This document shows, piece after piece, positions 36,872 to 64,000 of a stretch of DNA of 64,000 nucleotides (position 1 is the first letter of the stretch; every line of letters starts with the position of its first letter). Source of the DNA: an uncultured Ectothiorhodospiraceae bacterium (GTDB lineage: Bacteria > Pseudomonadota > Gammaproteobacteria > UBA9214). The notes under the pieces are model-generated. The model was not told where the DNA came from and searched no databases. It worked only from the letters and a program-made list of their open reading frames with translations. The stretch is from the NCBI GenBank assembly GCA_947259415.1, contig CAMYMI010000013.1:487-64486 (forward strand), read 5' to 3'. A program made the translations under genes and the position numbers.

Positions 36872-39223
36872 CTATTTCGACGTCATCACGAAGACGCCGT
36901 TCCAGTCGTCGCCGGGCGGGTGGTTCTTCATGTAGTCGCAGCGCTCGATGTAGGTACGCGACAGTTTATCGTTCGGGTGCAGCTTGAGGGCGTCGTTGAA
37001 GGCGGCCGTGGCCTTGTCCCAGTTGCCGTTACGGTACTGCGTCAGGCCGTCCTTGAAATGAAGGACCGTTTCCATCAGGTTGGGAAAGCTCTCCTCGCTG
37101 TGGTGGTCGAGGATCTCGTAGATGGACACCGGTTCGGTCTTGCCCTTGACAATCACCCGGTCGATTTCGCGGATGCGGTAGGTGCCGTGCAGCTTGCGGT
37201 AGGTGTTCTCGCTGGTCAGGATGCGCGCCGAGTACTGTTTGCAGGCACTCTCCAGGCGTGCCGCGAGGTTCACGCCGTCACCGATAATGGTGTAGTCCAT
37301 GCGCTTGGGCGAGCCGATGTTGCCCGAGACCACCACGTCGGTGTTGAGCCCGATGCCCATGTCCACCGGGTGTTTGCCCAGAGCCAGCCGTTCCCGGTTC
37401 CAGTCATCGAGTTTCCTGATCATAGCGATGGCGGCACGCACGGCGCGGTCCTCGTCGTCATCGTGGGCGATCGGCATACCGAAGGCCGCCATGATGGCAT
37501 CGCCGATGAACTTGTCGAGCATGCCTTCCTCGCGCTGGATGCAGTCGACCATGAGGGTGAAATACTCGTTCAGCAGGGCGACGGTGCCCTGGGCGCCGAG
37601 TTCCTCGGTCAGCGTGGTGAAGCCGCGGATATCGGAGAACAGAATGGTCGCCGGGGTGCTCTTGCCGCCGAGGATATCGCCACCACCCTCCAGGACCTGG
37701 TCGGCCAGGCCGGGATCCATGTAGCGCGCCATGGTCGACTTGACCCGCTTTTCGGTGCTGATGTCCTCGATCATGATCAGGGTGCCGAGCGAGTGCTCGT
37801 CGGAGGCGATCAGCGGCAGCACGGTCAGGTTGACCGAGACCTTGTTGTTGTTGAATTCGAGTTCGGCGTCCACCGAGATGTCCGGTACGCGGGTCTCGGC
37901 CACGCGCAGGATCTTGTCCCGGACCCAGGCATTGGCGCCGGTGAGGAACTCGTCGGCAGAGCGGCCGATGATGTCCTGGCTGTCGAGCTGCATAATGCGC
38001 GAGCCGGCGTCATTGCAGGTCACGATGTTGGCATCCTCGTCCAGGGTGAACACCCCGTTCGACATGCTCTGCAGCATGCTCTCGTTGTAGTTCTTCATGT
38101 TCTCGACGTCGTTGAACAGCTTGGCGTTCTCGAGGCCGATGGAGACCTGTGCCGTGAACGCGCGCAGGCGGGATTCGTCCTCCCCGGTAAAGGCGCCGCC
38201 GCGCTTGTTGAGCACCTGGGTGACGCCGATGGTCTTGCCGTCCTTGTTGACCACAGGAACGCACAGGATGGAGCGTGTGAAAAAGCCGGTCTTGCGGTCG
38301 AATTCCGGGTTGAAGCGCAGGTCGGCATAGGCATAGGGGATGTTCACCGACTGGCCACTGGTGAACACGGTGCCGGCAATACCCTGGTCATTGGGCAGGC
38401 GGATCTGGGTGGCGTCCAGGCCCACGCCGGTCTGCGACCATAACTCGCCGGACTTCTCGTCGTTGATGAACAGGGTCGAGCGTTCGGCATTGAGCATGCG
38501 CGTGGCCTCGGTCATCACCTTCTGCAGCACCACGGCGAGGTCGATCTCGGAGGTGACGTCCGAGACGATGTCGAGGAACTCCAGTTCCTGGGTGTGGGAC
38601 CTGTGCATGCGCTCGGCGAACTGGACGCTGTGCAGGGTGATCGAGGCCTGCAGGGTCAGCGCCTGCAATACCTCCAGGTTTTCCTCGGTGAACTCGCCGT
38701 GCTGCTTGTTCAGTGATTGTGCCACGCCGATGATGTCACCCTTGACGGTCCGGATCGGTGTGCACAGCACGTTGCGGGTATGGTAGCCGGTTTTTTCATC
38801 CACGGACGGGCTGAAGCGTTCATCGGAGTAGGCGTCATGGATGACCATGCTCTCGCCATTGGTGAACACATGGCCGGCGATCCCCACGGTGTTCAGTATC
38901 CGGATATCACGTCGGATGTCGCCCAGAGCCACCCGAGAGTACAGCTCGCCGGTCTCGACATCATTCAGGAACAAGGTGGAGCGATCGGCCCCGGTCTCCC
39001 GGCTGATGATCGTCACCAGGGTCTCGAGCGCCTCATCCAGCGTGTCCATGGCGCCCATTTGATGATTGACATCGACCAGCAGCTCGGCCATGCGCAGACG
39101 CTTGCCGATGACGTCATGCGCGCGGTCCGGGCCACGCCGTTCGACAAAGTCGATGACCGAACTATCCGGCATGGTGCGGCTCCAACGCTGCGCCCGGGGT
39201 GTCGTCGGAAGGTTGTCCCGCAC
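36872..39223 (-). CDS. GAF-GAF-PAS class III adenylate/guanylate cyclase
   Basis: Two GAF domains, a PAS, and cyclase motifs 'FSDIRGFTTL', 'FIGDAIMAAFG', 'GDGVNLAARLE'; alternative start 'MPDSS' at 39172. Confidence 0.85.
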   Translation of the reverse strand: MRDNLPTTPRAQRWSRTMPDSSVIDFVERRGPDRAHDVIGKRLRMAELLVDVNHQMGAMDTLDEALETLVTIISRETGADRSTLFLNDVETGELYSRVALGDIRRDIRILNTVGIAGHVFTNGESMVIHDAYSDERFSPSVDEKTGYHTRNVLCTPIRTVKGDIIGVAQSLNKQHGEFTEENLEVLQALTLQASITLHSVQFAERMHRSHTQELEFLDIVSDVTSEIDLAVVLQKVMTEATRMLNAERSTLFINDEKSGELWSQTGVGLDATQIRLPNDQGIAGTVFTSGQSVNIPYAYADLRFNPEFDRKTGFFTRSILCVPVVNKDGKTIGVTQVLNKRGGAFTGEDESRLRAFTAQVSIGLENAKLFNDVENMKNYNESMLQSMSNGVFTLDEDANIVTCNDAGSRIMQLDSQDIIGRSADEFLTGANAWVRDKILRVAETRVPDISVDAELEFNNNKVSVNLTVLPLIASDEHSLGTLIMIEDISTEKRVKSTMARYMDPGLADQVLEGGGDILGGKSTPATILFSDIRGFTTLTEELGAQGTVALLNEYFTLMVDCIQREEGMLDKFIGDAIMAAFGMPIAHDDDEDRAVRAAIAMIRKLDDWNRERLALGKHPVDMGIGLNTDVVVSGNIGSPKRMDYTIIGDGVNLAARLESACKQYSARILTSENTYRKLHGTYRIREIDRVIVKGKTEPVSIYEILDHHSEESFPNLMETVLHFKDGLTQYRNGNWDKATAAFNDALKLHPNDKLSRTYIERCDYMKNHPPGDDWNGVFVMTSK

Positions 39224-39551
39224 GGTCAGTGCGCTGATGCAGGCCTTCCAGCTCCTGGCGCAGTGCGGTGATGGTGGCCTTCAGCTGCTTGATCTCATCA
39301 CTGGTAGCAACCGTCGCCTGGTTGACCTGTTCCCTGGCATCGAAGCGCTGCTTTTCCAGCTCCTCGCGCAGGGCGCTGATGGTGTCCCGGAACTGCTGAT
39401 TCTCGATATGGTTCTCGGCGACCACCTGCTGTACGGCGTGGTCCTTTTCCAGGCGCATGGCCTCCAGCTCCGTACGCAGGGTCGCGATCATCTCCTGCAG
39501 ATGGCGGATTTCCCGGTTGGCGGCACTAAGTTGTTCGGGTGTGACTTCCAT
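39162..39551 (-). CDS. Coiled-coil hypothetical protein
   Basis: 129 aa with heptad-like repeats ('LRTELEAMRLEKDHAVQQ', 'ALREELEKQRFDAREQ'); overlaps the annotated cyclase start. Confidence 0.4.
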   Translation of the reverse strand: MEVTPEQLSAANREIRHLQEMIATLRTELEAMRLEKDHAVQQVVAENHIENQQFRDTISALREELEKQRFDAREQVNQATVATSDEIKQLKATITALRQELEGLHQRTDRAGQPSDDTPGAALEPHHAG

Positions 39552-39599
39552 GAGCGGCTCGCTGGTAACTGGTTATTATTATAGATTAATTCACTGCAG

Positions 39600-39840
39600 T
39601 CACATAAACTCCCTCTCCCCACGGGAGAGGGCTGGGGAGAGGGGGTCAGAAAATGATAACTGCATGAATCCAAATCCCATCATCCCAGTTTTCTCGGCAA
39701 CTGCTCCATGCCTTGCTCTACCGCCTGCATGGCCCAGGCCAGCTCTTGACCGCTACGCGGCCTCACCTCCTCCCTGCAGGCGTCCCGGAGGTAGAAAGTG
39801 TTTCGTGTTTTACAACGCCCTCCACAGGGAGAGGATTTCT
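39600..39840. repeat. REP/BIME-like repeat cluster (B-type palindrome plus 'cggcaactgctccatgc' element)
   Basis: 'ctccctctccccacgggagagggctggggagagggggtc' plus 'cggcaactgctccatgccttgctctaccgcctgcatgg...ctgcaggcgtcccggagg' also present at 56215-56400. Confidence 0.7.
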
Positions 39841-40030
39841 ATAAATCTAACGGCCTGATTTTTTCCTCATCAGTCTGCCGACAATCATTCCAGGCTACTT
39901 CAATTTAAGCACAAAATTACCAGATTGGCGCAACCGCGGCCCCCGCTCACGTCCGGCAACCCGGACTTGCGGCCGTTCTGGATACGAATCATACTCAACA
40001 GACTCCCATGCCTTGGCGAAGGAAATATAA

Positions 40031-40906
40031 TTGCTAATCACCTTCTACGGGGTCCGGGGCTCGGTGCCATCACCGGGACCCACGACCGTAAAATACGGCG
40101 GCAACACCTCTTGCGTCTACGTCGAACTGGCTAACGGCGAGAGCCTGATAGTGGACTCGGGCACGGGCATCCGCGGTTTGGGCAAGCGGCTCAAACAGAC
40201 CGACGGCGATATAAACATCCTCCTGTCCCACACACACTGGGACCACATCCACGGCTATCCCTATTTCGCGCCGATCTACCAGCGTGATCGGCATATCCGG
40301 GTGTTTACCGCGGCGAATGAGGCACACGGCCAGATCTGTTCCCTGTTCGACCAGATCGACGGGGCAAATTTCCCGCTGCACGCCAACGAGCTGCCGTCAC
40401 GGGCCGAGTGCATCACAGAGAATTTGGAATCCATGCTGGCCGGCGACAATATCCAGATCCGACGGGCGCACATCAACCACCCCGGCGGCGGCTATGCCTA
40501 TCGGATAGAGGAAGACGGCACCTCCTGCCTGTACATCACCGACAACGAGCTGGAACCGCCCAACAAGCCCGCCACCACCTATGACCAATGGGTTGAGTTC
40601 TGCCGCGGGGCTGATGTGCTGATCCACGATGCCCAGTACCTCCAATCCGACATGCCGCACAAGCACGGCTGGGGCCATTCACTGGTCTCGCAGGTGCGCC
40701 AGCTGGCGGTCGACGCCGAGGTCAACTGCCTGGTGATGTTCCACCATGACCCCGACCGCACCGATACCGAGATCGACTTTATCCAGCAGGAAAACGAACA
40801 GTTCTTCCGCGGTCGGCGCGCCCCGGCGCTGAGTGTGTGTGCCGCGGAGGGCATGCAGATCCGCCTGACCCCGCAAGCCGAGGGCACTCGCATCACGGTT
40901 GAATAA
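40031..40906 (+). CDS. MBL-fold metallo-hydrolase
   Basis: 'LLSHTHWDHIHG' HxHxDH zinc motif, downstream His/Asp ligands; 291 aa. Confidence 0.75.
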   Translation: MLITFYGVRGSVPSPGPTTVKYGGNTSCVYVELANGESLIVDSGTGIRGLGKRLKQTDGDINILLSHTHWDHIHGYPYFAPIYQRDRHIRVFTAANEAHGQICSLFDQIDGANFPLHANELPSRAECITENLESMLAGDNIQIRRAHINHPGGGYAYRIEEDGTSCLYITDNELEPPNKPATTYDQWVEFCRGADVLIHDAQYLQSDMPHKHGWGHSLVSQVRQLAVDAEVNCLVMFHHDPDRTDTEIDFIQQENEQFFRGRRAPALSVCAAEGMQIRLTPQAEGTRITVE

Positions 40907-41164
40907 ATGCGGTAATCAGATGGCGGGCACCGCCGCGACAAGAGTATGCGGCAGATCTTGCCGCCGTGGCAGGTCAACTTGATAGAATAGCGCGGTCTCT
41001 ATAGCTTGCCTCGGGGCGGTCCACCCGCCATTCATCGACTGATCCCAGATCAGATCACTTACTTTTGAAGGTTGACAGGACGGCAGTGAACGTCGATGTG
41101 TATTTCAGGCCGGCGTTGTTCTCAGGCACACAAGCCGGCCTGCTTGCGGACTTAAATCGGGTCC

Positions 41165-41878
41165 CTATCGCTTGTCGTAATCAGCTGCTGCTGTTAATCC
41201 AACCTGCTCGAGTAAGGCAGCGCGTTGGGCACGTAGGGTCGCATCCCCCGGATTCTGCTGGATTGCCCGAGATATCGAATCGATGGCGTCATACCACACC
41301 CCGTTTTCCGCATAAATACTCGCCATTGTTTGATGGTCTGCCTTAGCGATTCTGCTCTCGAGATCAGCATCTGGCGGGTCATATTGAATCGTGCCGCTGG
41401 CAATGACATCGTTGGAACGCTGTTCCTCATCAGGTGTCACGGATACGAACCAGCGGTACTCGATACCCGGCTCGAGTTTGGTGCCAGCGGTTGCCAGATC
41501 CAGCTGCTGGATCCCTGCGCTTTTCGGGGTGCCGACGACGTTCTCGAGAATCGGATCGATTGCCTCGTCATTGATCACGGTCACATCCAGTCGCGCATTT
41601 GCCGGTTTGGAGATGTACCAGTAGAGCGTGGGCTGGCTCTTGGTTGTCAGTCCGGTGTGATCCGGCGCAAGCACGGACAGTTCGAGCGTGGTTTCCCCCA
41701 CCCCGCGTGATCCGCCGCCGACACGACTGGCAGGTGCTCCCCGCAGTGGGGGGCTGTAGGTAAAGCCGCCGCCGCTCTTCTGCACTGAACTGCCGGTGGT
41801 TTCCTGGGCGGACACCAGGGTGGAAAATGGTGCAAGAATCAGAGTGAGTAACAGAGCAAGTGTCGTAACAGGATTCAT
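41165..41878 (-). CDS. Secreted DUF928-family protein
   Basis: Signal peptide 'MNPVTTLALLLTLILAPFSTLVSAQE'; Gly-rich linker; 'TLYWYISKP...LEPGIEYRWFVSV' resembles DUF928; 327 bp downstream of, and co-oriented with, the CHASE2 cyclase. Confidence 0.55.
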   Translation of the reverse strand: MNPVTTLALLLTLILAPFSTLVSAQETTGSSVQKSGGGFTYSPPLRGAPASRVGGGSRGVGETTLELSVLAPDHTGLTTKSQPTLYWYISKPANARLDVTVINDEAIDPILENVVGTPKSAGIQQLDLATAGTKLEPGIEYRWFVSVTPDEEQRSNDVIASGTIQYDPPDADLESRIAKADHQTMASIYAENGVWYDAIDSISRAIQQNPGDATLRAQRAALLEQVGLTAAADYDKR

Positions 41879-42204: not shown

Positions 42205-44178
42205 TCAGTTGCTGGCTGTGGCCACTGCTGAAAGGACATCGCTGGCCTCCGCAGGGGTTTTTTCTCCAAGCAGCCGATAGACCATGACCCCCTCGGACTT
42301 GCCTTTCAGGCTGCAGATCCCGACGGGCTCGAGTTCGAACCGGTCCCCCAGACACTCGGCCGTATGGTCAGCCAGCAGGATCTGGCACAGGCTGTCCGGA
42401 GAGTTCCCGGGCGCCTCCTTGCTGAAGCTCTCGAGCCGGGCCGCGGTGTTGACCACGTCGCCGATGGTCGTGTACTTGATGCGCTGCGTGCTGCCCAGAC
42501 AGCCGGCCACCACCGGGCCGGTGGCAATCCCCACGCGGATCCTGACCAGCGGCGAGCCCTGTGCGGACCAGAACGCATTCAGCCGCTCCATCTCCTGCCG
42601 CATGGCCAGCGCACAACTCACGGCGTTGATGGCGTCCTGGCGGATCTGCGCATCGGTCGTGCGCGGGACGGGCACACCGAAATCCGCCTTGATGGCATCG
42701 CCGATGTAATTGTCCACCACACCCTCATATTGCGTGACCAGGCTCGCCATCGCCTCCATGTACTCGTTGAGCCAGTTCAGCAATTCCGTGGGGGTGAGCC
42801 GTTCGGCAACCGGCGTGAAATTGGCCAGGTCGGAAAACAGCACCGTGATCTTCATGGTCTGCGCATCCAGACGCCCGCCGTGCATGAAGCTGTCGCGGTG
42901 TTTCCACAATTCATCGGCAACCGTCGGCGAGACATTCTTGGAAAACAGGTCCATGAGCAGCCGCTTCTCGGCCTTTTCGTGGGTCGAGAGGTAGGCCATG
43001 ACCACGCCGGAGGCGGCCAGCCAGGCGAGTCCCGTGGGGGCGACCGGGATCCACCAACCGAGCATGAAGGCGGCAAACGCAATCGCAACCAGTGTCGCCA
43101 GGCCGCCGGCCGCGAGCAGGGTGAAGCGCAGGCCGGAACGGGTGAAGCGGCCGAGGATGGCCGCCAGTATCCCCCACAGCAGGATCCACAGATGTTCTGT
43201 CCGGTCGCTTGACACCTGGATGGGCACATCGCCCGCCAGGGCGGCCCGCAGCAGCTGACTGGTTTCATAGCCATGGACGGCAATCCCGGAGGTGGTCTGT
43301 CCCGGGCCGGCAAAGCGGTCGTAGGGGGTGAGAAATTCATCCTTCACACTGTCGGCATTGACACCGGCAATGACGATAGCGTCGCGGATGAGCGCCGGGT
43401 CCACCTGGTCGTCCAGGACATCGCTCATGGAATAGGTCGTGAAGGGATTGACACCGCCCCGGTAGTCGAGCAGGTACTGATAGCCGGCCGCATCAGCGCC
43501 CACGTAGGCACCGTCATCGGCCTCGAACGGGACGAAGGTCGTCGGTCCCAGGCGCAGGTGCTCGGGATTCGGGTCACCGGCCTGTGGCGTGATGTCTGCC
43601 TCGGCCAGATAGGCCATGGCGAGCCGCAGCGGCAGCGAGACGGAGAAGTTCTGGCCATCGTCGAGAAACAGCAGGCCCCGCCGTACCACGCCGTCGCTGT
43701 CCACGGTGACGTCGGAGAACCCGATCCGCTCCGTGCCCCGCAGGGCCTCGGGACCGAGCACCCGGGTGCCGCTGGCATCGCCGAATTTTTCGATGAAGAG
43801 GATGGAGTCGTTATTGCGGAGCAGGGCATTGAAGCGTTGCGTCCCGGGCGGCACGGCGAAATCCCGGTAGAGATCGACGCCGATCACCCGCGGTTCATGG
43901 TCGAGCAGCGCCTCGAGCAGGTCGGCCAGCCGGTCATCGGAGGGCGGCCATTGCTGGATGCGCTGGATGTCCTCCTCCACGATCTGGATCAGGACCAGGC
44001 GCGGCTCGGGCACGGTGTGGCGCTCCTTGACCCGGAGGAAGGCGTCGTAGGAGGCCAGTTCGAGGAACTGCAGATAGCCGGCGCCGCGCAGCCCGACCAC
44101 CAGCAGACAGGCCAGGATACCCAGCACCAGGCTCACCAGGGTCGGCGAGCGCAGCCGTTCCAGCCACTCAGCCTTCAT
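42205..44178 (-). CDS. CHASE2 extracytoplasmic sensor domain fused to a class III nucleotide cyclase
   Basis: N-terminal TM, about 300-aa periplasmic CHASE2 region, three TM helices, cyclase motifs 'VLFSDLANFT', 'YIGDAIKADFG', 'GDVVNTAARLE'. Confidence 0.85.
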   Translation of the reverse strand: MKAEWLERLRSPTLVSLVLGILACLLVVGLRGAGYLQFLELASYDAFLRVKERHTVPEPRLVLIQIVEEDIQRIQQWPPSDDRLADLLEALLDHEPRVIGVDLYRDFAVPPGTQRFNALLRNNDSILFIEKFGDASGTRVLGPEALRGTERIGFSDVTVDSDGVVRRGLLFLDDGQNFSVSLPLRLAMAYLAEADITPQAGDPNPEHLRLGPTTFVPFEADDGAYVGADAAGYQYLLDYRGGVNPFTTYSMSDVLDDQVDPALIRDAIVIAGVNADSVKDEFLTPYDRFAGPGQTTSGIAVHGYETSQLLRAALAGDVPIQVSSDRTEHLWILLWGILAAILGRFTRSGLRFTLLAAGGLATLVAIAFAAFMLGWWIPVAPTGLAWLAASGVVMAYLSTHEKAEKRLLMDLFSKNVSPTVADELWKHRDSFMHGGRLDAQTMKITVLFSDLANFTPVAERLTPTELLNWLNEYMEAMASLVTQYEGVVDNYIGDAIKADFGVPVPRTTDAQIRQDAINAVSCALAMRQEMERLNAFWSAQGSPLVRIRVGIATGPVVAGCLGSTQRIKYTTIGDVVNTAARLESFSKEAPGNSPDSLCQILLADHTAECLGDRFELEPVGICSLKGKSEGVMVYRLLGEKTPAEASDVLSAVATASN

Positions 44179-46893: not shown

Positions 46894-47000
46894 GAACGGG
46901 GATTAACAACAAAGTAACCGCGCGGTGCAGGCCTGCACCGCGCGGCGCGATAACCACAGCGCGGTACCGGAGACGGATGACCGCAGAGGGGGAGTTGTTC

Positions 47001-49916: not shown

Positions 49917-49918
49917 CT

Positions 49919-54277: not shown

Positions 54278-54884
54278 TTTTTTACCTCCTGGTGGCGGTC
54301 CGGCGCAATACGCAAAGTATCGCATAAATCTGGCCAGATCACCTCCTGCGCAAGTCTATTTGGTACCGGGATTGGCTGTATTTTACGGGTCTGTGGGATG
54401 GTGTCTGGCATAAAATAGCCAACTCCGATTCTTGTAGAAGGCAATTCGGTAATTTTTGAACTACTTATATTAGAAAGTGCTTGCTGCGCTATCATGCCAT
54501 GGCGCAGTGGCACGGATTTCCTTCACAAAAATGGACACTATGTGCAGATTGCCTCTCCGATTGATCCGTTCTTGAGCATCTAATACAGACGGATCCCTGT
54601 AATACCAAGGGAGCCATCAGGCTGCACGTGGTCCCGGATGATAAGGTTTGTCTGACCGGGTGTGTCCTGCCTGCCGTAGGTAATAACGCCGACAGTGAAG
54701 CAGGTCGCGTTCCGGGATTTCCCGCCGCGGTATCGTGATCGGAAAATTGTCAGGCAAGGGATATGTTCACCAACTGCCGAATAGCCCCCGACTGGGATGG
54801 GGTGTTTGTGCACACCCAGAAGTGATTCGGGATTGCTTTTCTGTGTTATCCGCTATTTTACCCTGCGCTTGATCGGGTAGTCCC

Positions 54885-55438: not shown

Positions 55439-56080
55439 ATGCTGGAAAATATTCCCTTGTTCTCCGGGTTGCCCGAAGAGGCGCTGACCAAGATCGAGCA
55501 ACACGGCTCGACCAAGAGCTACAAGAAGAACACCATCGTCATCAACGAGGGTGACGAGACCGATTCCCTCTACGTGATCCTGTCCGGCCGGGTGAAGGTG
55601 TTTCTCAGCGGCGAGGACGGGCGCGAGGCCGTATTGAACCACCAGGGACCGGGCGAGTACTTCGGCGAAATGGCGCTGATCGATCGCCAGCCGCGGGCCG
55701 CCTCGGTGATGACCCTGGAGCCCTCGAAATTGATGATTATCTCGCGTAGCGATTTCATGGACTGTCTCTCGGCCAACCCGGAAATCGCCATGAATCTGAT
55801 TCGGCCACTGAACAGCCGGATACGCATGCTGGCGCAGAATGTCAGCAGCCTGGCTTTGCTCGACGTTTATGGTCGCGTGGCTCGGACCTTGTTGCAGCAT
55901 GCCGAGAAGGAGGATGGGAAGCTGATTACCGGTAAGCTGACCCAGCAGGAGATCGCCGATATGGCGGGAGCGTCACGCGCCATGGTCAGTCGAATCCTGA
56001 CCGACCTCAGGACCGGTGGTTATATCAGCATCGAGAACAAGCGTATCAGCATCCATCAGAAACTGCCCTCGCACTGGTAG
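55439..56080 (+). CDS. Crp/Fnr-family transcriptional regulator (cNMP-binding domain plus C-terminal HTH)
   Basis: 'GEYFGEMALIDRQPRAASV' cNMP-binding beta-roll; HTH 'QQEIADMAGASRAMVSRIL'. Confidence 0.85.
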   Translation: MLENIPLFSGLPEEALTKIEQHGSTKSYKKNTIVINEGDETDSLYVILSGRVKVFLSGEDGREAVLNHQGPGEYFGEMALIDRQPRAASVMTLEPSKLMIISRSDFMDCLSANPEIAMNLIRPLNSRIRMLAQNVSSLALLDVYGRVARTLLQHAEKEDGKLITGKLTQQEIADMAGASRAMVSRILTDLRTGGYISIENKRISIHQKLPSHW

Positions 56081-56770: not shown

Positions 56771-57040
56771 TACCGGTGTGCGTCCAGGTGCCATTGTGAG
56801 GCTTGCCGTTGTGCCCGAACTCTGTACGCCGGTCAGGCGACGCGTGCTGTCTTAAACGAATTAATCATTCAACTGACTGAATTACCAATGGAATTAACCA
56901 ATTCAAAATGTGAATAATTGACATTTTTTCTGTCCACTTTGCCGGCGCGTCCAGAAAGCCATCTGGTTAATCTATAGCCAAGTGAAAAGATCAATGTGTG
57001 TAACCAATGGAGCTGCCTGTCGCAGCCGGAGGAGAGAAAA

Positions 57041-57373
57041 ATGAAAAGGACCTTATTCACAACACTGGTTTTATCAGCGGCCATTGCGGGATTCAGTCCC
57101 GCCACGTTCGCTGCCGAAGACGATGATTCCATGCGCGCCTGGCAAACGAGTCTGTTGTATGCACCCAGCGAGGCGCAGCGAAGGGTTGAAGACCGCGGTC
57201 GGGTCGTGATCTATGATGGCCTGCACAGCACCGATATCGACCGGGCGTTCGATGAGCAGTTCGACCGTGTCGAGAACATGATGTTCGTCAATACCGTGCT
57301 CACCGATTCAGAAGGTGCACCGCTTACGGACCCGGATACCGGCGAATACATGACCGAGGACGACGGTTGCTGA
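57041..57373 (+). CDS. Small secreted acidic hypothetical protein
   Basis: Signal peptide 'MKRTLFTTLVLSAAIAGFSPATFA'; about 85-aa Asp/Glu-rich mature part. Confidence 0.4.
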   Translation: MKRTLFTTLVLSAAIAGFSPATFAAEDDDSMRAWQTSLLYAPSEAQRRVEDRGRVVIYDGLHSTDIDRAFDEQFDRVENMMFVNTVLTDSEGAPLTDPDTGEYMTEDDGC

Positions 57374-57416
57374 CAGGGCATCCACCCGGATGCCCTGGAG
57401 TGGATTTGTGTCGGAC

Positions 57417-58166
57417 TCAGTCGCTGATCGCGAAAGTGACCGGCCGGCTGAGGGAGCCGTGATTGAAGTCCCCCAGCAGGACATGCTCGTTGGTATCGCG
57501 GGCATGGATAACCCAGGAGTAGTAGCCGCCTTTTTCCAGCAGTCCCTTCGGTAACACCAGGCGAGGCTCGGACAACAACTTCGAGTTATGGATCAGCTTG
57601 CCGTCGTTCCACAGGTCACGGATAAAGACCTGGTAGAAGGCCGCGCCGGGGATGGCATCCCAGCTCAGTTCCTTCGGTACCTCATCGATCTCCGCATCCG
57701 CTGCGGGCACATGGCCGGCGGCCTGGGGGAGCTTGTCGATGATGACGTAATCGCGCGCCTGGAACTGGCTGCCGTCATTCAGGGTGACGCGCGCGGAATA
57801 CCAGCCATCGGGTGCACTCGACGGGACATCGGTCTCGACCATGAAGGCCCGCTTCGGTGGCTTGTTTTTGGGGGTGATCTTGCGGTAATTACCCAGGTCA
57901 AGTTCGGACAACAGACGGCCGTCGGGGTAGTAGACCTCGATCTTTTCGGTCTCGGCAAACCGCGGCGTGGAAAACAGCGGCATGAAAAACAGTGACCGGT
58001 CCGGCCAGTTGCACACGTGGATATCGAAAAAGCCGGCCGCGTTGTAGTGCGGGTCCTCGCCGGCCTGTGCGGCTGCAGCGAAGAATGCCAGACTGAGGAT
58101 AATCAGCGAATGGCTTAGCCGCCGATTGATGCGGGGTTCATGCCGGGTTGGATTAATAATGCGCAT
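57417..58166 (-). CDS. Secreted hypothetical protein
   Basis: Signal peptide 'LIILSLAFFAAAAQA'; 220-aa mature domain with no assignable family. Confidence 0.5.
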   Translation of the reverse strand: MRIINPTRHEPRINRRLSHSLIILSLAFFAAAAQAGEDPHYNAAGFFDIHVCNWPDRSLFFMPLFSTPRFAETEKIEVYYPDGRLLSELDLGNYRKITPKNKPPKRAFMVETDVPSSAPDGWYSARVTLNDGSQFQARDYVIIDKLPQAAGHVPAADAEIDEVPKELSWDAIPGAAFYQVFIRDLWNDGKLIHNSKLLSEPRLVLPKGLLEKGGYYSWVIHARDTNEHVLLGDFNHGSLSRPVTFAISD

Positions 58167-58204
58167 GGTTTCTCCTTTTCCGTTGCTGTTCATCCGCGGG
58201 CTTA

Positions 58205-58545: not shown

Positions 58546-58594
58546 TGACATGCACCAATGTCATGTGCACGACAATGCAACCTGCTTTATCTAC

Positions 58595-59104
58595 TTATTT
58601 ATCCGTTCCCGGTGCCCGCCGGTTGGCCTCGCGCAGCCGCAGCGACAGGCTGCGCAGCATGCCGATGCTGAGTTCCGGGTAGCTCAGGATCAGGCCCTTC
58701 AGGCGCGATTTGTCCAGCGCCAGGACCGTGCTGTCTTTGATGACGTGGGCCGTGGCGGAACGCGGCAGGTCATCAAGTATGTTCATTTCTCCGAAGCAGT
58801 CGCCAGGACCCAGGCGGGCGATGAAATTGGTACTGCTCGTGTCCGGGTCGAGACTGATGCCGACCTCGCCGCTCACCATCAGGTAGAGGTGGTCACCGTG
58901 TGCGTTGATCTCGAATACGCGGTCACCGGCAAAGTAACGTTGCTCCTCAAGCGCCTGGGCCACGCGCCGCAGGTCATCGATGGCAACCTCGGAAAATACC
59001 GCAGATTTCTTCAACAACAGCAAGCGGTCAAACAGATCAGGCACGGCTGTTTCCTGGGCTGAGGGTTGACAGGACCGTGTCGGCACAGTGCCGCAACCAG
59101 TCAT
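58595..59104 (-). CDS. Stand-alone cyclic-nucleotide-binding domain protein
   Basis: 'GDCFGEMNILDDLPRSATAHV' phosphate-binding cassette; 5' end overlaps the upstream TLC/HEAT gene by 68 bp, so the start is probably an internal GTG near 'VPDLFDR'. Confidence 0.7.
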   Translation of the reverse strand: MTGCGTVPTRSCQPSAQETAVPDLFDRLLLLKKSAVFSEVAIDDLRRVAQALEEQRYFAGDRVFEINAHGDHLYLMVSGEVGISLDPDTSSTNFIARLGPGDCFGEMNILDDLPRSATAHVIKDSTVLALDKSRLKGLILSYPELSIGMLRSLSLRLREANRRAPGTDK

Positions 59105-61721
59105 CTTTTTGTTGTCGGCACCAGTCCAGAACCTCCTGCAGCGCCCTCAAATCGGCCTTGGCAGGCTTACCGGTCTGCTTGCTGATGCTCAATTGCAGTA
59201 TATCATGCAGCTGGCCGGCAACGTTGTGATCGTCCAGGTTGGCAAGCACCTCGATGGCGTTGGCCACATGTCGGCTGTCACCGCTCGAGAAGCCGGCACG
59301 GATAATACTGATCAACCCCGGTTCATGCAGGGGTTCCAGGGCCTGCAGTGCGAGGTGCAGCATCTGGTTCATGCGCTCACTGAGAGTGTATCTCACGAGT
59401 TCCAGGGCCGGTAAATCACCGACATTCACAGAGGCCTCCTCCAGGACGGCGACCGCAGCCTGGAGACTTCCGGCTTCGTCAATCTTACGCATGGCAATGG
59501 TTTCATAGCGGGCTGATGGCAGGCCCATCTCCTGCAAGGCCCCGAGCAGTGTACCCTGGGCACGGGGATTACACTGGTTATCGGTAATCCACAGGATTGC
59601 GGTCTGTACGAAGTCATCGGTCACCTGCTGCAGCGACCGCAGGGCCGCTTCGCGCACCCGGGGGTGACCATCGCCCAGTGCCCGGGCAATCCGGTTATCC
59701 CGGTCGGCGATGACCAGGTGCAGGCAGCCCGCTGCGGCCGTGCGCAGCGCAGGGTCCTCACTGTCGAGCGGATCATCCAGCAGCTCATCGATGTTGATGC
59801 GGCAGCCGGCGGGCCAGAGGCTGATACCCGTCAGCGCGCGTGTTCTGGCATCCGTCACCGGTTCCTGCAGGAGGGTCTCGAGTGCCTGGCGGTAGGCGAA
59901 GGTAACGGTCTCACGCTCCGGGTCGTCCAGGTTGGTGATATCCGGAACCAGGTCCATGGCCGCCAGGCAGGCAGGGGTGTCGGCGCCCAGCAGTTGCAGC
60001 CAGTGCTGGACGATATTGGGACGGTGTTCGTAGTTCACCGCCACGTGAATAGCGAGGCTGCGCAGGCGTGGGTTGTCGCTATCCAGGAGCCTGATCGCCG
60101 TATTTCTTGCCCGTTCATCACCGTCTGTTACCAGCATCTTCAGGACAGTGGCCTGCAGGTGTTTATCACCCTTGTCCGCCAGTGCATGAAGCTGCGAGCG
60201 GTAGGGTCCGATGTCTTTCGCACCGAGCATGCGCAACATGCGGTCGATCGTGGGTGTGTCCTTTTTACCGATTTCATCGAGGATGAGTTTCACGGCCTCG
60301 TCGGGGAAGGAATCCACCAGCAACCGCGCAAACGCGACGGAGACCTCGTTGTCTTCGTGACGCACACCGCGCAGGACCTCGTCGAGCACACCAGAACTGC
60401 TGCCCTGCAGCTCGAGATACATTTGCTCATTGGGCAGGAACAGGCGTTCCTTGAGGGTATTGAGCAGGGTGCTGACATAGGCCCGGTTCATCCGGTGATT
60501 GAAGAAAAAATACAGCATGGCGGCGCCGGCACCGGGTATCAGGAAATAACGCGGATCGTCCATGCGCTGCATGACCCACAACAGGGTGCCGCATATCAAC
60601 AGGGCCAGGGGGAGCACGATCGCGACCGACATGGCACGTGCACGTCCCTGCATGTAACCGGGCAGTACGTTGAAGAACATCGCCCTGACCGGATTCCTGA
60701 AGGCCGGCATCACGGTGTCCTTGTTGAAGCTGCCGAGCAGTGCGGAGGGCAGGGCGAAGCTGACCATCAGGGCCAACAGGCTGAATACCGTGGTGACCGG
60801 GTAAATCAGGTTTACCTTGCGCACCCCAAAGCGTTCAATGGTGCGGTTGGTGACGAACAGCTGGATCAGCAGCGCGATGATGCTGGTGGCCGCCGTCAGA
60901 GCACCGAAGAAGCTGGTCAGCGCCTCCTCGGTGGTAAAGGTCTGGGTATAGACCCGGTTGACGCTGTAATTGAGGATGTAAAAGGCGATCACCATGAAGA
61001 ACATCGCAAACGAGGCCGCGCGCAGTAAGGCTGAACTGTAGGTGAAACGCACGCCCTGGTTGATGTCGAGGATGCAGTCACGCACCAGGTGGGCGCCTTT
61101 CTTCGGTGGCCGGAAGTGTGCCGAGACTCCGTAGCGTCTGTGATGCAGGTAGATAACCGCAATACCCAGGCCGAGCAGCAGGCACCAGGCCAGCAGCAGA
61201 TTCTGGGTGCCGATCAGCGGGGCGAACACGGCCAGGGTCAGACCGCCGCTGATGGTGCCGACCTGGGCGCCGGCGTATATCAGGGGTGACAGGCGTTTGG
61301 CCTGCAGGGTGTTCAGGTTCTGGTTCATGTAGAGGGCGCCATGGACCAGCAACAGGTCGGAGGAAACCTCGTAGACCAGGTAGTAGAAGGGGTAGACCCA
61401 TGTGGATCCGGTATTGCTGATCACCATCCAGCTGGCCCCGACCAGGATCACCAGGATGCCCAGCAGGGCCTTGAAAAAGGACTCGGCCGGTATGCGATCG
61501 GCAAACGCGGCATACAGGGTACTGGCAGCGGCCAGCAGCACGCTCTGGATGATGTACATCAAGGGCAGATACTCGATGCCGAAGCGCTTGAAGAACAGGG
61601 CGTCGGCGGTGCTGCGACCGATGGCCATGCCGGCGCTGACCAGCAGGAAGAACAGCAGGAAGTACAGGACCTCGCCGCTCTCGTCCTCGTGGACGAGGAA
61701 GAGTTTTCTGATGCGTTCCAT
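59037..61721 (-). CDS. TLC/Npt-type (ATP:ADP-antiporter-like) polytopic transporter fused to C-terminal HEAT repeats
   Basis: N-terminal 12-TM domain beginning 'LYFLLFFLLVSAGMAIGRSTADALFFKRFGIEYLPLMYIIQ'; about 450-aa C-terminal alpha-solenoid with 'DPALRTAAAGCL', 'HPRVREAALRSL', 'SRHVANAIEVLANL' HEAT-like units. Confidence 0.7.
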   Translation of the reverse strand: MERIRKLFLVHEDESGEVLYFLLFFLLVSAGMAIGRSTADALFFKRFGIEYLPLMYIIQSVLLAAASTLYAAFADRIPAESFFKALLGILVILVGASWMVISNTGSTWVYPFYYLVYEVSSDLLLVHGALYMNQNLNTLQAKRLSPLIYAGAQVGTISGGLTLAVFAPLIGTQNLLLAWCLLLGLGIAVIYLHHRRYGVSAHFRPPKKGAHLVRDCILDINQGVRFTYSSALLRAASFAMFFMVIAFYILNYSVNRVYTQTFTTEEALTSFFGALTAATSIIALLIQLFVTNRTIERFGVRKVNLIYPVTTVFSLLALMVSFALPSALLGSFNKDTVMPAFRNPVRAMFFNVLPGYMQGRARAMSVAIVLPLALLICGTLLWVMQRMDDPRYFLIPGAGAAMLYFFFNHRMNRAYVSTLLNTLKERLFLPNEQMYLELQGSSSGVLDEVLRGVRHEDNEVSVAFARLLVDSFPDEAVKLILDEIGKKDTPTIDRMLRMLGAKDIGPYRSQLHALADKGDKHLQATVLKMLVTDGDERARNTAIRLLDSDNPRLRSLAIHVAVNYEHRPNIVQHWLQLLGADTPACLAAMDLVPDITNLDDPERETVTFAYRQALETLLQEPVTDARTRALTGISLWPAGCRINIDELLDDPLDSEDPALRTAAAGCLHLVIADRDNRIARALGDGHPRVREAALRSLQQVTDDFVQTAILWITDNQCNPRAQGTLLGALQEMGLPSARYETIAMRKIDEAGSLQAAVAVLEEASVNVGDLPALELVRYTLSERMNQMLHLALQALEPLHEPGLISIIRAGFSSGDSRHVANAIEVLANLDDHNVAGQLHDILQLSISKQTGKPAKADLRALQEVLDWCRQQKDDWLRHCADTVLSTLSPGNSRA

Positions 61722-61744
61722 ACTCAGAAGAATCTCATCACTGG

Positions 61745-62314
61745 TTATTGAAACGGAAACAGTTTCATTGGCTTGGCCATCTGATTCACATTGCCCCCCA
61801 TATAGCCCATGGTGACATTCATATCGGTGACCTGCCGGTTCAGAAGCTGTATGTTTGCTGCCATGTTGGCGACGTTGCCATTCATGGTATAAATTTGCTC
61901 GACCAGCGAGTGAACGTCACCACTCAGGTTCAGCAGGCTACCGTCCATGCTGACAACGGCAGCATTCATTGCCGGTATGACAGTGATGTTATCGTTGAGT
62001 GTGAGCATGGTCTTCTGCATGGTCCCCATGTCGTCAGCCATTGATTCCATGTCCGCCTGCATTGTCTGCATATAGCCTGACATATCCTCCATGTGAATAG
62101 TGACCAGAGAGAAATCCTTGGTCAGGATAAATATAAGATAGAACAGCGCCACACCCAGAATGGCCATACCCGTCATGCCGAAGCGTATGATCTGCGTGGT
62201 GCGTCGGCCGATGCGGATGCTCATCTGTTCCCGGTGTTGCATGCCCTCGCGGAATTCCTGCATGGAATTCTCCACGATCTCGGCCAGTGTCCTGGCGCTG
62301 TTAGTGTCCTCCAT
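61745..62314 (-). CDS. Single-pass membrane protein with a Met-rich (MxxM/MxM) extracytoplasmic domain
   Basis: One TM 'MAILGVALFYLIFIL'; then 'MEDMSGYMQTMQADMESMADDMGTMQKTM...MNGNVANMAANIQ...MNVTMGYMGGNVNQM'. Confidence 0.5.
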   Translation of the reverse strand: MEDTNSARTLAEIVENSMQEFREGMQHREQMSIRIGRRTTQIIRFGMTGMAILGVALFYLIFILTKDFSLVTIHMEDMSGYMQTMQADMESMADDMGTMQKTMLTLNDNITVIPAMNAAVVSMDGSLLNLSGDVHSLVEQIYTMNGNVANMAANIQLLNRQVTDMNVTMGYMGGNVNQMAKPMKLFPFQ

Positions 62315-62513
62315 GTACTACTCCTCTACAGCACGCTTTTTATTGCGGTAATGCCGGGCTGCTTGTTGTTGTTTTATATTCAATGAGCAGGCTGGTTAAT
62401 CAATCGCCCGCGTACGCCATATCGTTTTGTTCGGGTCCTGATTTTTTATATCTTTACTCATACGAAATATTTTACGGGTTGTATCAGTCTTTGCTCCTGG
62501 TTTTATGATTGAT

Positions 62514-62765
62514 CCCTCTCCCTGTCCCTCTCCCGGAAGGAGAGGGGACGTTTAGATTAGGCTCAATATATCCCCTTATACTCCCTCTCCCTGTCCCTCT
62601 CCCAGAAGGAGAGGGGACGGTCAGATTAAGCTCAATATATCTCCTTGTACTCCCTCTCCCTGTCCCTCTCCCGGAAGGAGAGGGGACGTTTAGATTAGGC
62701 TTAATATATCCCCTTATACTCCCTCTCCCTGTCCCTCTCCCAGAAGGAGAGGGGACGTTCTATTT
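62514..62765. repeat. Four tandem copies of an about 68-bp E-type REP unit
   Basis: 'tccctctccctgtccctctccc(g/a)gaaggagaggggacg..agatta.gct.aatatat.cccttatac' repeated head-to-tail. Confidence 0.8.
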
Positions 62766-62789
62766 ATGCTCGCTGCTATCTCGTTTACC

Positions 62790-62930
62790 CCCTCTCCCTT
62801 TGGGAGAGGGTTGGGGAGAGGGGGCCTCAATCAAATAACTGTGTATCTGCCCAAGTACCGCATCGATATCACCCAGTATTTCATGACTCCATAACCGCAT
62901 GTCTGTTGCATGGCCATCATCAGAGTCAGA
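62790..62930 (-). pseudogene. Truncated remnant of a second DUF559 endonuclease 3' end (tandem duplicate of the region 62957-63070)
   Basis: Encodes '...MRLWSHEILGDIDAVLGQIHSYLIEAPSPQPSPKGRGG', nearly identical to the C-terminus of the adjacent intact gene; about 100 bp of DNA duplicated including the REP palindrome. Confidence 0.6.
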
Positions 62931-62943
62931 GAGTTCCAAGTTG

Positions 62944-63318
62944 TTAAGCAATTTTACCCCCTCTCCCTTCGGGAGAGGGTTGGGGAGAGGGGGCTTCAAT
63001 CAAATAACTGTGTATCTGCCCAAGTACCGCATCGATATCACCCAGTATTTCGTTATTCCAGAATCGCATGACCTTATAATCCATAGATTCGAGAAACAGG
63101 CTTCTCTCTAAGTCTTCTTCTATCTGCTCCAGATGTTGTCCACCATCCACCTCGACTATCAATCTTACTTTCAGGCACAGAAAATCGACAATATAGGGTT
63201 CAATGACCACCTGACGCCGAAACTTGTAGCCTGCCATTCGATGAGCGCGTAAGTATTTCCATAGCGCATGCTCCGCATCAGTGGGCTGTTGGCGTAGCTT
63301 CCTTGCTAGCGATTTCAT
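62944..63318 (-). CDS. DUF559-family (Vsr-like PD-(D/E)xK) endonuclease-domain protein
   Basis: 'ARKLRQQPTDAEHALWKYLR...YKFRRQVVIEPYIVDFLCLKVRLIVEVDGGQH' is the DUF559 signature; the C-terminal 'EAPSPQPSPEGRGGKIA' is encoded by the REP palindrome. Confidence 0.75.
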   Translation of the reverse strand: MKSLARKLRQQPTDAEHALWKYLRAHRMAGYKFRRQVVIEPYIVDFLCLKVRLIVEVDGGQHLEQIEEDLERSLFLESMDYKVMRFWNNEILGDIDAVLGQIHSYLIEAPSPQPSPEGRGGKIA

Positions 63319-63319
63319 T

Positions 63320-63500
63320 TCTTATTACTCCCTCTCCCTGTCCCTCTCCCGTAGGGAGAGGGGACGGTCAGATTAAGCTCAATATATCCCCTTATACTCC
63401 CTTTCCCTGTCCCTCTCCCGGGGGAGAGGGGACGGTCAGATTAAGCTCAAAATACCCCCTTATACACCCTCTCCCTCAGGGAGAGGGTTGGGGAGAGGGG
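63320..63500. repeat. REP cluster (two E-type units plus a B-type palindrome)
   Basis: 'ctccctctccctgtccctctcccgtagggagaggggacggtcagattaagctcaatatat' x2, then 'ccctctccctcagggagagggttggggagagggg'. Confidence 0.75.
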
Positions 63501-63681
63501 ATTGAAAAAAGGCAATTGCCTGATTTGGATCCCCTCATCCTGGTCATTAACGGCCTCCTGCTTTCCGCGGCAATGTATAGGAAGTTCGTATGTCGCGAAT
63601 CCACATGAGTGTACAAATACAACCACATGTGCCTCCCTGTGCCTCGTCTTTCTCCCTGGAACTGATAGTTTCAGGGAGCCT

Positions 63682-63797
63682 CTGATTAATTGATTTGTGA
63701 CGTCATTGCGAGCACAGCGAAGCAATCTCTTGACAATACGATCAACGAGTTACAGATTGCTTCGTCGCTGCGCTCCTCGCAATGACAAATTAATCAG
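63682..63797. other. Long imperfect inverted repeat (arms about 30-45 bp, loop about 25 bp)
   Basis: 'ctgattaattgatttgtgacgtcattgcgagcacagcgaagcaatct' ... 'agattgcttcgtcgctgcgctcctcgcaatgacaaattaatcag'. Confidence 0.6.
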
Positions 63798-63816
63798 ACC
63801 TTCCTTAGCTATATGC

Positions 63817-64000
63817 TCACCCTAGCCTGTGGGTGGTCTTGAACAGCCGCGTGGCAAGGATCTCGTTCAGGTTTCTGAATACCTTGGTGGCGATGTAGGG
63901 GTAGCGTTTGCTGAGCCGCTCGAGGTTGCTCTGGGTCAGCGACAGCAGGCGGCTGTCCTCGGTGGCATCGACATCGGCGGTGCGTTTTTCATAGAACAGC
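63817..64000 (-). CDS. 3' end of a gene encoding a cNMP-binding-domain-like C-terminus (partial, continues beyond the window)
   Basis: 'LFYEKRTADVDATEDSRLLSLTQSNLERLSKRYPYIATKVFRNLNEILATRLFKTT' resembles the C-terminal helix region of cyclic-nucleotide-binding domains. Confidence 0.4.
   Translation of the reverse strand, partial: LFYEKRTADVDATEDSRLLSLTQSNLERLSKRYPYIATKVFRNLNEILATRLFKTTHRLG

Follow-up and report, generated by a model that had tools for sequence, protein, structure and literature searches.

Positions 36,872 to 64,000 of a 64-kb stretch of DNA from an uncultured Ectothiorhodospiraceae bacterium (contig CAMYMI010000013.1; the whole stretch is called the window below) contain a group of genes for cyclic-nucleotide (cNMP) signalling. 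It is likely that this region is a conserved cNMP signalling supra-operon in which the input cassette can be exchanged while the output block stays fixed. The product of an envelope-sensing cyclase is probably a cyclic nucleotide, with a regulator and two membrane transporters as its readers. The original prediction for this DNA was a dedicated cNMP island of unusual gene density. The idea of an island holds, but it rests on synteny rather than on density.

Domains were assigned using the listing of open reading frames and Pfam and NCBIfam scans of the window proteins (Table 1). Pfam bore out the two class III cyclases, the metallo-beta-lactamase (MBL) fold hydrolase, the Crp regulator and the stand-alone cNMP-binding protein that had been predicted. 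The catalytic residues proposed as a check are in place, as both cyclases keep the two metal-binding Asp residues and the transition-state Asn and Arg. Apart from the CHASE2 cyclase, the whole content of 41.2-54.3 kb had been overlooked, namely the DUF928, RTX, TpsA, TpsB and TPR-CHAT genes, and so had the conserved genes for proteins of 129, 125, 258 and 189 amino acids (aa).

Conservation of the output block and exchange of the sensor cassette

The block at 55.4-64 kb contains genes for the Crp regulator, the 125-aa and 258-aa proteins, the cNMP-binding protein, an MFS-type protein with a HEAT domain (MFS-HEAT), the 189-aa protein and an MMPL-family exporter fused to a cNMP-binding domain (MMPL-cNMP). 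The window holds all of it save the part beyond the window end. Gene order was read from the contigs that encode homologues of the HEAT protein. In every one of them the order is LolA-like protein, MMPL-cNMP (913-914 aa), 189 aa, MFS-HEAT (about 895 aa), cNMP-binding protein (about 150 aa), and a protein of about 250 aa. The block recurs in loci L021-L025 and in dozens of metagenome loci, and is conserved at 41-89% identity in many gammaproteobacterial contigs. The nearest records are metagenome-assembled genomes of uncultured sediment and soil Gammaproteobacteria; a few homologues are labelled Thiogranum or Thiohalobacterales.

Given this synteny, the clustering is not a matter of chance. It is very improbable that the genes simply fell together, with no functional meaning, in a genome rich in cyclase and cNMP-binding genes. 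Some proteobacteria do encode dozens of class III cyclases, with 26 in Sinorhizobium meliloti (PMC4222275). However, in many contigs the gene order is kept even where protein identity is as low as about 41-50%, the related contigs are not near-identical strains, and the junctions within the block are short or overlapping, so that synteny largely refutes this explanation. Genes with cyclase or cNMP-binding domains make up 5 of 18 in 36.9-64 kb against 0 of 26 scanned in 1-36.8 kb (Fisher p = 0.008), a comparison that covers the window rather than the whole genome.

The gene of the 258-aa protein serves as the marker of the block: of the 57 loci whose upstream sequence is long enough, 53 have the cNMP-binding gene directly upstream of it. 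When metagenomes were scanned with an alignment of this protein, 80 loci were obtained, of which 28 were informative, that is, extended at least 2.5 kb beyond the 258-aa gene. The block adjoins a CHASE2 receptor cyclase in 18 of the informative loci. Twelve of these cyclases are of the FecR type and six of the DUF928/CHASE2 type; three further loci have only Crp and seven have other or housekeeping genes at this place.

These cyclases belong to two types of cassette. The type-1 cassette of the relatives encodes a FecR-TPR-outer-membrane barrel protein, a Cys-rich protein and a CHASE2 adenylate cyclase with the canonical Lys/Thr pair. The type-2 cassette is the one seen in the window. The closest long relative, contig CAMYJI010000023.1 (loci L020 and L026), matches the window in gene order from the GAF cyclase through to the MMPL gene, apart from one cassette. 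On its left side, the GAF cyclase is 88% identical to that of the window, the coiled-coil protein (143 aa at the matching position, against 129 aa) 57%, and the MBL protein 85%. On its right side, the identities are 89% for Crp, 63% for the counterpart of the 125-aa protein (111 aa), 71-81% for that of the 258-aa protein (256 aa), 82% for the cNMP-binding protein, 75% for the HEAT protein, 83% for the 189-aa protein, and 92% over the available fragment of MMPL-cNMP. Between MBL and Crp, the relative contains a 7-kb type-1 cassette (FecR-TPR, a 293-aa protein and a canonical CHASE2 adenylate cyclase), whereas the window contains a 13-kb type-2 cassette (DUF928, CHASE2 cyclase, RTX, TpsAB and TPR-CHAT). 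As the flanks are collinear and the cassettes differ, the sensor cassette has been swapped: in the window lineage, one sensor module with a CHASE2 cyclase took the chromosomal place of another.

At least four independent junctions join the type-2 cassette to the block. Its neighbour in the block is the cNMP-binding gene in L003 and MMPL-cNMP in L001 and L002; in L044 it comes after Crp, and in L067, L071, L078 and L096 after the 258-aa gene.

The region might instead consist of two unrelated systems lying side by side, a surface-protein cassette with its own local messenger having landed in a recombination-prone spot rich in repetitive extragenic palindromic (REP) hairpins. This is unlikely. 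In Deltaproteobacteria and Verrucomicrobiota (L004, L007) the cassette does stand without the block, it varies in orientation and position with respect to the block, the REP hairpins are confined to the island half of the window, and the closest relative has a different cassette in the same slot. On the other hand, it is two kinds of CHASE2-cyclase cassette that repeatedly adjoin the block, with the 18 loci and at least four junctions mentioned above; a deltaproteobacterial copy of the cassette carries a cNMP-binding gene of its own; and replacement of CHASE2 by CHASE2 at one site looks like functional substitution, not random insertion.

The Cys-rich exported protein of the type-1 cassette is encoded between the FecR-TPR-barrel protein and the CHASE2 cyclase (L026 9017-9898, L022 16513-17415, L023 16321-17319, L025 16396-17394). 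It evolves fast, at 20-46% identity against 57-79% for its neighbours, and is a candidate ligand or co-receptor. By-eye comparison suggests that the 293-aa Cys-rich protein is unrelated to DUF928.

The type-2 cassette and its CHASE2 cyclase

The two-partner secretion (TPS), CHAT and DUF928 genes are the most unusual part of the locus. TpsA matches PF05860 (100 bits) and TIGR01901. It is 38% identical in L002, where its neighbours reach 70-77%. TpsB, with POTRA_2, ShlB and Omp85 domains, is conserved in L002, L007, L044 and L067. The pair shows the features of two-partner secretion, a gene with a TPS domain adjoining a gene with POTRA and barrel domains. This is similar to FhaB/FhaC and ShlA/ShlB, where the exoprotein gene is followed by a gene for TpsB of the POTRA and Omp85 type (PMC5422565). 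However, the window pair sits in a cassette that also encodes a CHASE2 cyclase, DUF928 and a CHAT protease that is exported, and its TpsA is short (1017 aa) and fast-diverging. The review of TPS systems mentions no cyclase, CHASE or CHAT (PMC5422565). The RTX protein carries a signal peptide at its N-terminus and occupies a variable gene slot 5' of TpsA, which in L002 holds an unrelated 421-aa gene.

The CHAT domain (PF12770, 201 bits) has the catalytic residues H647 (VASHG) and C697 (LSACQT). Both are conserved in L002, L004 and L008, and the Cys motif also in L007. CHAT adjoins CHASE2 cyclases in L002, L004, L005, L007, L008 and L015. The signal peptide of TPR-CHAT begins at an internal Met at about 54277; signal peptides are also present in the DUF928, RTX, 258-aa and 125-aa proteins. 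In the periplasmic DUF928 protein the signal peptide is followed by the conserved motif PPxRGAPxxRxGGGxRG, invariant across the aligned DUF928 proteins. One may speculate that this motif, with PPLRGAPASRVGGGSRG as a candidate stretch, might be cut by a caspase-fold protease directed at Arg. The DUF928 gene adjoins homologues of the CHASE2 cyclase in about 15 of 19 genome loci.

CHAT, CHASE2 cyclase and DUF928 genes, with or without TpsB and TpsA, co-occur in Gammaproteobacteria, Deltaproteobacteria and Verrucomicrobiota. The TpsAB/CHAT/DUF928/CHASE2 cassette is a unit across phyla. In the deltaproteobacterial cassette CHAT forms the end of a 3268-aa protein, and at one deltaproteobacterial locus a stand-alone cNMP-binding gene and a further gene of the MBL type are present in addition. 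Caspase-fold proteases are tied to CHASE2 by metacaspase-CHASE2 fusions of cyanobacteria (PMC2853523). The only mention of a link between DUF928 and CHASE2 found in the literature search is a passing note on a gene neighbourhood in Nostoc (PMC5587647), and the search found no description of CHAT or TPS together with CHASE2. In the Burkholderia BiofilmReg operon, a LysM-FecR protein is encoded beside a CHASE2 sensor whose output is a histidine kinase (PMC5192318). As in the window, a periplasmic accessory protein is encoded next to the CHASE2 sensor, which implies that CHASE2 reads partner proteins; the output and the partner differ, the latter being DUF928/CHAT in the window.

The CHASE2 domain of the window cyclase (PF05226, 191 bits) covers residues 23-340 and is followed, ahead of the cyclase domain, by hydrophobic segments at about 340-400. 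The two window cyclases score 91.1 and 89.5 bits with PF00211 at a Pfam cut-off of 21.9. The CHASE2 cyclase keeps D450, D494, N577 and R581 and has T570. However, the purine-selecting Lys (the position of K296 in Rv1625c) is replaced by N490, so that the Lys/Thr pair of adenylate cyclases is absent, and K497 stands in place of the usual Met of GDAxM. By alignment, the protein fits neither the Glu/Cys nor the Glu/Gly guanylate pattern of Cya2. The same arrangement is seen in all 120 closest homologues, which come from Gamma- and Betaproteobacteria and are 53-100% identical: the Lys site is N (31 proteins) or D (89 proteins), with K at +7. More distant CHASE2 cyclases of similar cassettes carry the canonical K...M. 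Residues i and i+7 may pair across the beta2-beta3 hairpin, given the tight turn at Gly-Asp, and in that case the lysine would have been relocated.

Mycobacterium tuberculosis Rv1900c, reportedly described by Sinha and colleagues in 2005, is said to be a class III cyclase in which Asn/Asp takes the place of Lys/Asp. The window CHASE2 cyclase resembles it in having Asn at the substrate-specifying Lys site with the catalytic set otherwise intact. It differs in that its clade adds a Lys seven residues downstream (GDAIK), probably pairing across the beta2-beta3 hairpin. It also differs from both Rv1900c and Rv1625c, whose substrate residues in the latter case are Lys296/Asp365 (PMC4174876), in being of the IIIb type, in having Thr at the second specificity site, and in its CHASE2 receptor architecture.

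The CHASE2 cyclase of the Verrucomicrobiota locus L007 (9959-11893) has Glu at the Lys site and GDG, similar to the guanylate cyclase Cya2 of Synechocystis. From these residues, one type of cassette (CHAT/DUF928/TpsAB) may signal via different nucleotides in different phyla.

The second cyclase, the receptors and the proposed pathway

The 783-aa GAF-GAF-PAS protein is, by its residues, a canonical class IIIb adenylate cyclase similar to CyaB1. The metal-binding residues are D531 and D575, the substrate residues K571 and T645, and the transition-state residues N652 and R656. K571 and T645 align with those of Pseudomonas aeruginosa CyaB and Spirulina CyaC, and thus form the Lys/Thr pair of adenylate cyclases. 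The NKFDE motif is a mark of cNMP-binding GAF domains in CyaB1 and PDE2. Read from the sequence, GAF-B holds a motif of this type, NKRGGAFTGEDE (N-K-x4-F-x3-D-E), and that of GAF-A is imperfect. Anabaena CyaB1 and CyaB2, reportedly characterized by Kanacher and colleagues in 2002, are said to be GAF-GAF-PAS adenylate cyclases, with cAMP binding to the NKFDE GAF-B of CyaB1 in a positive feedback. The window protein shares with CyaB1 the order GAF-GAF-PAS-class IIIb with a TPR-like tail, the Lys/Thr substrate pair and the NKFDE-type motif in GAF-B. It differs in its gammaproteobacterial origin and in the imperfect GAF-A motif; ligand binding by its GAF domains is a prediction. The GAF-GAF-PAS cyclase is found by the island in four loci: the window, L026, and L039 and L052, where 76% identical orthologues lie beside a type-1 cassette. 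The coiled-coil gene overlaps the start of the GAF cyclase gene.

The MBL hydrolase, encoded between the two cyclases, had been considered a candidate phosphodiesterase. It scores 43.7 bits with NF041851 at a cut-off of 400, and RNase Z models score equally or better (62.8 bits). The best matches in the PDB have E-values of only about 1e-3, and neither the NCBIfam models nor the PDB gave evidence of membership in a phosphodiesterase family. The conservation of the protein far exceeds that of its neighbours (the top 120 homologue clusters are at least 71% identical), and elsewhere its gene lies beside GlnD, beside an Na+/H+ exchanger, or at an island border next to Peptidase_M48 and Crp. The phosphodiesterase assignment is not supported, given the low family scores, the high conservation and the varied gene contexts; the gene looks like a backbone gene at the island edge. 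In rhizobia, SpdA was chosen as a phosphodiesterase by its position and does not hydrolyse 3',5'-cAMP (PMC4222275), which is a warning against naming phosphodiesterases by gene position.

The Crp protein matches PF00027 (95.6 bits), HTH_Crp_2 and Crp models. It has both the phosphate-binding cassette and the helix-turn-helix domain of the Crp subgroup, and the cassette is PKA-like (PRAAS). Among solved structures, the protein is best matched by M. tuberculosis Crp (E 1.6e-32), Escherichia coli CAP and S. meliloti Clr. Orthologues with 55-89% identity flank the block in L020-L024, L026, L037, L044, L059-L062, L078 and other loci.

The cNMP-binding gene overlaps the 3' end of the MFS-HEAT gene, and its orthologues (56-82% identity) always follow the HEAT gene. 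The MFS-HEAT protein has a membrane domain at about residues 1-430 and a cytoplasmic HEAT-repeat solenoid at about 450-890. The original prediction called it a TLC transporter; however, the N-terminal 440 aa have no match to PF03219 at E up to 0.1. For 40 homologues, of which 31 match MFS_1, this family is likewise missing from the 25 listed as most frequent. Homologues are named 'ATP:ADP antiporter' in a few cases (JGI) and 'MFS transporter' (NCBI). In the AlphaFold model the solenoid is confident and pLDDT is below 50 over residues 226-436. With this low-confidence model, the best transporter match of a fold search was the plant protein AtNTT1 (9j3m, TM 0.47), about level with MdfA (0.49) and VMAT. 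The safe name for the 894-aa protein is MFS-type with a HEAT domain.

The gene at the window edge had been described as a partial cNMP-binding gene. This is correct, and the assignment can be made more exact. The 60-aa fragment has no Pfam match, but it is 78-92% identical to the C-termini of 913-914-aa MMPL+cNMP_binding proteins (L001, L020-L025) and is therefore the end of an RND-type exporter. The pairing of MMPL-cNMP with a LolA-like periplasmic protein in relatives, often near MlaC, suggests control of lipid or envelope export. The MlaC neighbour also hints that the block deals with envelope lipids. A divergent MlaC gene is often observed upstream of the LolA-like and MMPL-cNMP genes (L021-L024, L030, L037-L039). 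The window itself has Mla lipid-transport genes at 29344-32867, about 25 kb from the island, encoding MlaE, a 402-aa MlaA fusion, MlaC and an ABC ATPase.

Orthologues of the 189-aa protein (52-83%) lie between the MMPL and HEAT genes in most loci, and the secreted 125-aa protein has a 44% identical orthologue in L078. The 258-aa protein has an invariant N-terminal DPHY..GFFDxHVCNWP and a C-terminal Ig/Fn3-like module. Its family of full-length members is small and counts 38 representative clusters at E up to 1e-30 among 1.84 billion. The C-terminal module of about 70 aa recurs up to 13 times in giant proteins of 1000-6500 aa.

These data show the domain content, the catalytic residues, the synteny and the cassette swap; from them we infer the signal flow, the nucleotide involved and the substrates transported. 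The input cassette (41.2-54.3 kb) would be an envelope-spanning sensor, in which TpsB exports or displays TpsA. The exported TPR-CHAT and the periplasmic DUF928 protein would act on, or together with, the periplasmic CHASE2 domain of the membrane cyclase, whose cytoplasmic class III domain would then make a 3',5'-cyclic nucleotide. The CyaB1-like GAF-GAF-PAS adenylate cyclase with the NKFDE GAF-B (36.9-39.2 kb) would serve as an amplifier. The output (55.4-64 kb and beyond) would involve three cNMP receptors, one transcriptional (Crp) and two attached to transporters. The 17-kDa cNMP-binding protein, co-translated with MFS-HEAT, presumably docks on the HEAT solenoid to gate transport. The third receptor would be the MMPL/RND exporter with its fused C-terminal cNMP-binding domain.

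A more specific scheme is tentative, and we consider it doubtful. The cassette would be a proteolytic trans-envelope device, where CHAT processes DUF928 at its Arg/Gly-rich motif, or the surface TpsA, and CHASE2 reads the product. The Asn/Asp cyclase clade would make a nucleotide other than cAMP that would directly gate MFS-HEAT and MMPL via the cNMP-binding modules.

Several observations weigh against the supra-operon. Gene adjacency is the sole link between the product of the CHASE2 cyclase and the three receptors, and the density comparison reaches only the window rather than the genome total of such genes. The block has no adjacent cyclase in 10 of the 28 informative loci, and other phyla also have type-2 cassettes that are not accompanied by the block. 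As the purine-selecting Lys is absent, the product of the CHASE2 cyclase clade is not predictable; the window Crp is 89% identical to the Crp of a relative whose cassette cyclase is canonical. The recognition helix of Crp (SRAMVSRIL) differs from that of E. coli CRP and has Ala at the position of Glu181, so that its operator is probably different from TGTGA-N6-TCACA. Crp-type sites with this consensus, for which the original prediction proposed a search upstream of the operons, are absent from the 64 kb at up to one mismatch, with 1.7 expected by chance. Finally, the REP arrays and the DUF559 gene inside the block may have uncoupled its expression.

At two mismatches there is one intergenic Crp-type site in the window. 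Consensus scans of the window for Clr, FNR and NtcA sites gave nothing above chance, and no Clr or NtcA boxes. Comparison of the upstream regions of three loci revealed conserved promoter-like stretches without a clear palindrome. One of these is a conserved stretch of about 60 nt 5' of the 125-aa gene (56900-56995; L020 14348-14480) with the pattern GTGA(A/T)T(A/T)ATTGACATTTTTTCTGTCCA...TAATCTATAGCCAA. A TGTGA half-site abuts a TTGACA box there, with no palindrome evident, and the stretch is a candidate regulated promoter.

The closest characterized system is the cascade of NsrA, CHASE2 cyclases and Clr in S. meliloti, and the supra-operon probably represents a variant of that type of pathway. 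The CHASE2 cyclases of S. meliloti relay from the outer-membrane protein NsrA to the Crp-like Clr, with a FecR-domain gene at the cyaD1 locus (PMC13001267, PMC7529298, PMC5498481). As with CyaD1/CyaD2/CyaK-NsrA-Clr, an inner-membrane CHASE2 cyclase would be fed by an outer-membrane beta-barrel protein, the output would go via a Crp-family regulator encoded at the same locus, and FecR-domain and exported proteins with no assigned function are neighbours. A putative phosphodiesterase is also nearby, the rhizobial one being inactive on 3',5'-cAMP as said above (PMC4222275). In the relatives, the type-1 cassette seems to correspond directly to NsrA/CyaK. The window differs in that the partners are TpsB/TpsA, TPR-CHAT and DUF928 instead of a FecR/NsrA-type protein, in that its CHASE2 cyclase lacks the purine-selecting Lys, and in that two non-transcriptional receptors are added, the cNMP-binding protein with MFS-HEAT and the MMPL-cNMP fusion.

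The rhizobial NsrA-CyaK/CyaD-Clr pathway is the sole worked example of CHASE2 sensing. Here two partner sets, FecR-TPR-barrel and TpsAB with CHAT and DUF928, are exchangeable before the same cNMP receptors, which argues that CHASE2 cyclases are generic readers of protein signals borne by the envelope. The locus offers candidates for the machinery generating the ligand, for non-transcriptional cNMP effectors (MMPL-cNMP, and MFS-HEAT with its cNMP-binding subunit), and for a sizeable cyclase clade with a rearranged substrate pocket. No description of such ligand machinery, transporter-linked effectors or rearranged clade was found in the searched literature. The new elements are the type-2 cassette, the transporter-linked receptors and the clade with the relocated Lys, whereas the type-1 cassette resembles the S. 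meliloti system.

CHAT proteases are effectors in some defence systems. The region could be suspected to serve in conflict or in defence against phages, as a system of the Pycsar/CBASS type whose cyclase signal activates effectors, with CHAT as the effector. Both cyclases and the cNMP-binding protein match the PycC and Pyc-effector models of PADLOC, and a protein with a PycTM domain is encoded at 11669-13306. However, these matches are generic: the score of the canonical GAF cyclase (89.7 bits) exceeds that of the CHASE2 cyclase (83.6 bits), for CHAT there is nothing beyond a weak, generic match to TPR repeats (29 bits), and the DUF928, 258-aa, 189-aa and MBL proteins match no defence model. 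Moreover, CHAT is exported, the CHASE2 sensor of the cyclase lies outside the cytoplasm, the block keeps a stable synteny beside housekeeping genes, and the PycTM gene is 30 kb away with no cyclase beside it. A defence function is therefore hardly to be expected, and this explanation was rejected because the defence models gave generic matches only.

Gene map, repeats and other features of the window

Table 1. Genes and repeats from 36.9 kb to the end of the window (positions in nt unless kb is given)
Feature	Position	Strand	Basis
GAF-GAF-PAS class III cyclase with weak TPR tail	36872-39223	-	Pfam
129-aa coiled-coil protein	39162-39551	-	only coiled-coil-type Pfam matches
MBL-fold hydrolase (Lactamase_B_2)	40031-40906	+	Pfam
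DUF928 protein	41165-41878	-	Pfam
CHASE2-Guanylate_cyc class III cyclase	42205-44178	-	Pfam
RTX-repeat protein	45019-46893	+	Pfam, NCBIfam
TpsA, TPS-domain exoprotein, filamentous-haemagglutinin N-terminal type	46863-49916	+	Pfam, TIGR01901
TpsB outer-membrane transporter, POTRA_2 and ShlB/Omp85 barrel	49853-51730	+	Pfam
TPR-CHAT (caspase-fold) protease	51968-54325	-	Pfam
Crp-family regulator, cNMP_binding and HTH_Crp_2	55439-56080	+	Pfam
125-aa protein	56996-57373	+	signal peptide; no Pfam match
258-aa exported protein	57417-58193	-	no Pfam match
Single-domain cNMP-binding protein, 169 aa, 17 kDa	58595-59104	-	Pfam
894-aa protein, MFS-type membrane domain and HEAT	59037-61721	-	Pfam, homologues, model
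189-aa membrane-anchored, Met-rich coiled-coil protein	61745-62314	-	orthologues in relatives
DUF559 gene	62944-63318	-	Pfam
3' end of MMPL/RND exporter gene with C-terminal cNMP-binding domain, runs off window	63817-64000	-	
REP clusters	39.6, 54.9-55.3, 56.5-56.7, 58.3-58.5, 62.5-63.5 kb		

The window contains 21 REP-type hairpins of the form CCCTCTCCC-N3-6-GGGAGAGGG, all in its second half (39611-63487). The genes of the island had been described as all separated by REP clusters. The hairpins are real, but there are none between 40 and 54.9 kb. The block itself is split at 62513-63545 by REP arrays, including a 69-nt tandem array at 62513-62840, and by the DUF559 gene. The gap between the MMPL and 189-aa genes is 1502 nt in the window against 35-135 nt in relatives, and the cNMP-binding and 258-aa genes lie 401 nt apart, compared with -8 to 24 nt. 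In the window no gene for a RAYT-type transposase was found. The C-terminal residues APSPQPSPEGRGG of the endonuclease-like DUF559 protein are encoded by a REP hairpin, the frame running into the repeat.

An Rfam scan of the window gave no match. A scan of 39.2-58.7 kb for promoters and terminators gave counts at chance level (9 against 7.0, and 17 against 14.5).

The PycTM protein mentioned above (545 aa, minus strand) combines a Pycsar-effector transmembrane domain (PF18967, 82.9 bits; PADLOC PycTM, 54.8 bits) with DUF3616. Its gene lies next to those of cytochrome c' and an MscS-like channel, with no cyclase adjacent. It may be an orphan or domesticated Pycsar-type effector. A set of genes of the partner-switching type was observed at 26114-28936 on the plus strand, encoding a 242-aa SpoIIE/PP2C phosphatase, a 439-aa GAF-SpoIIE phosphatase and a 148-aa anti-sigma-type kinase (HATPase_c_2).

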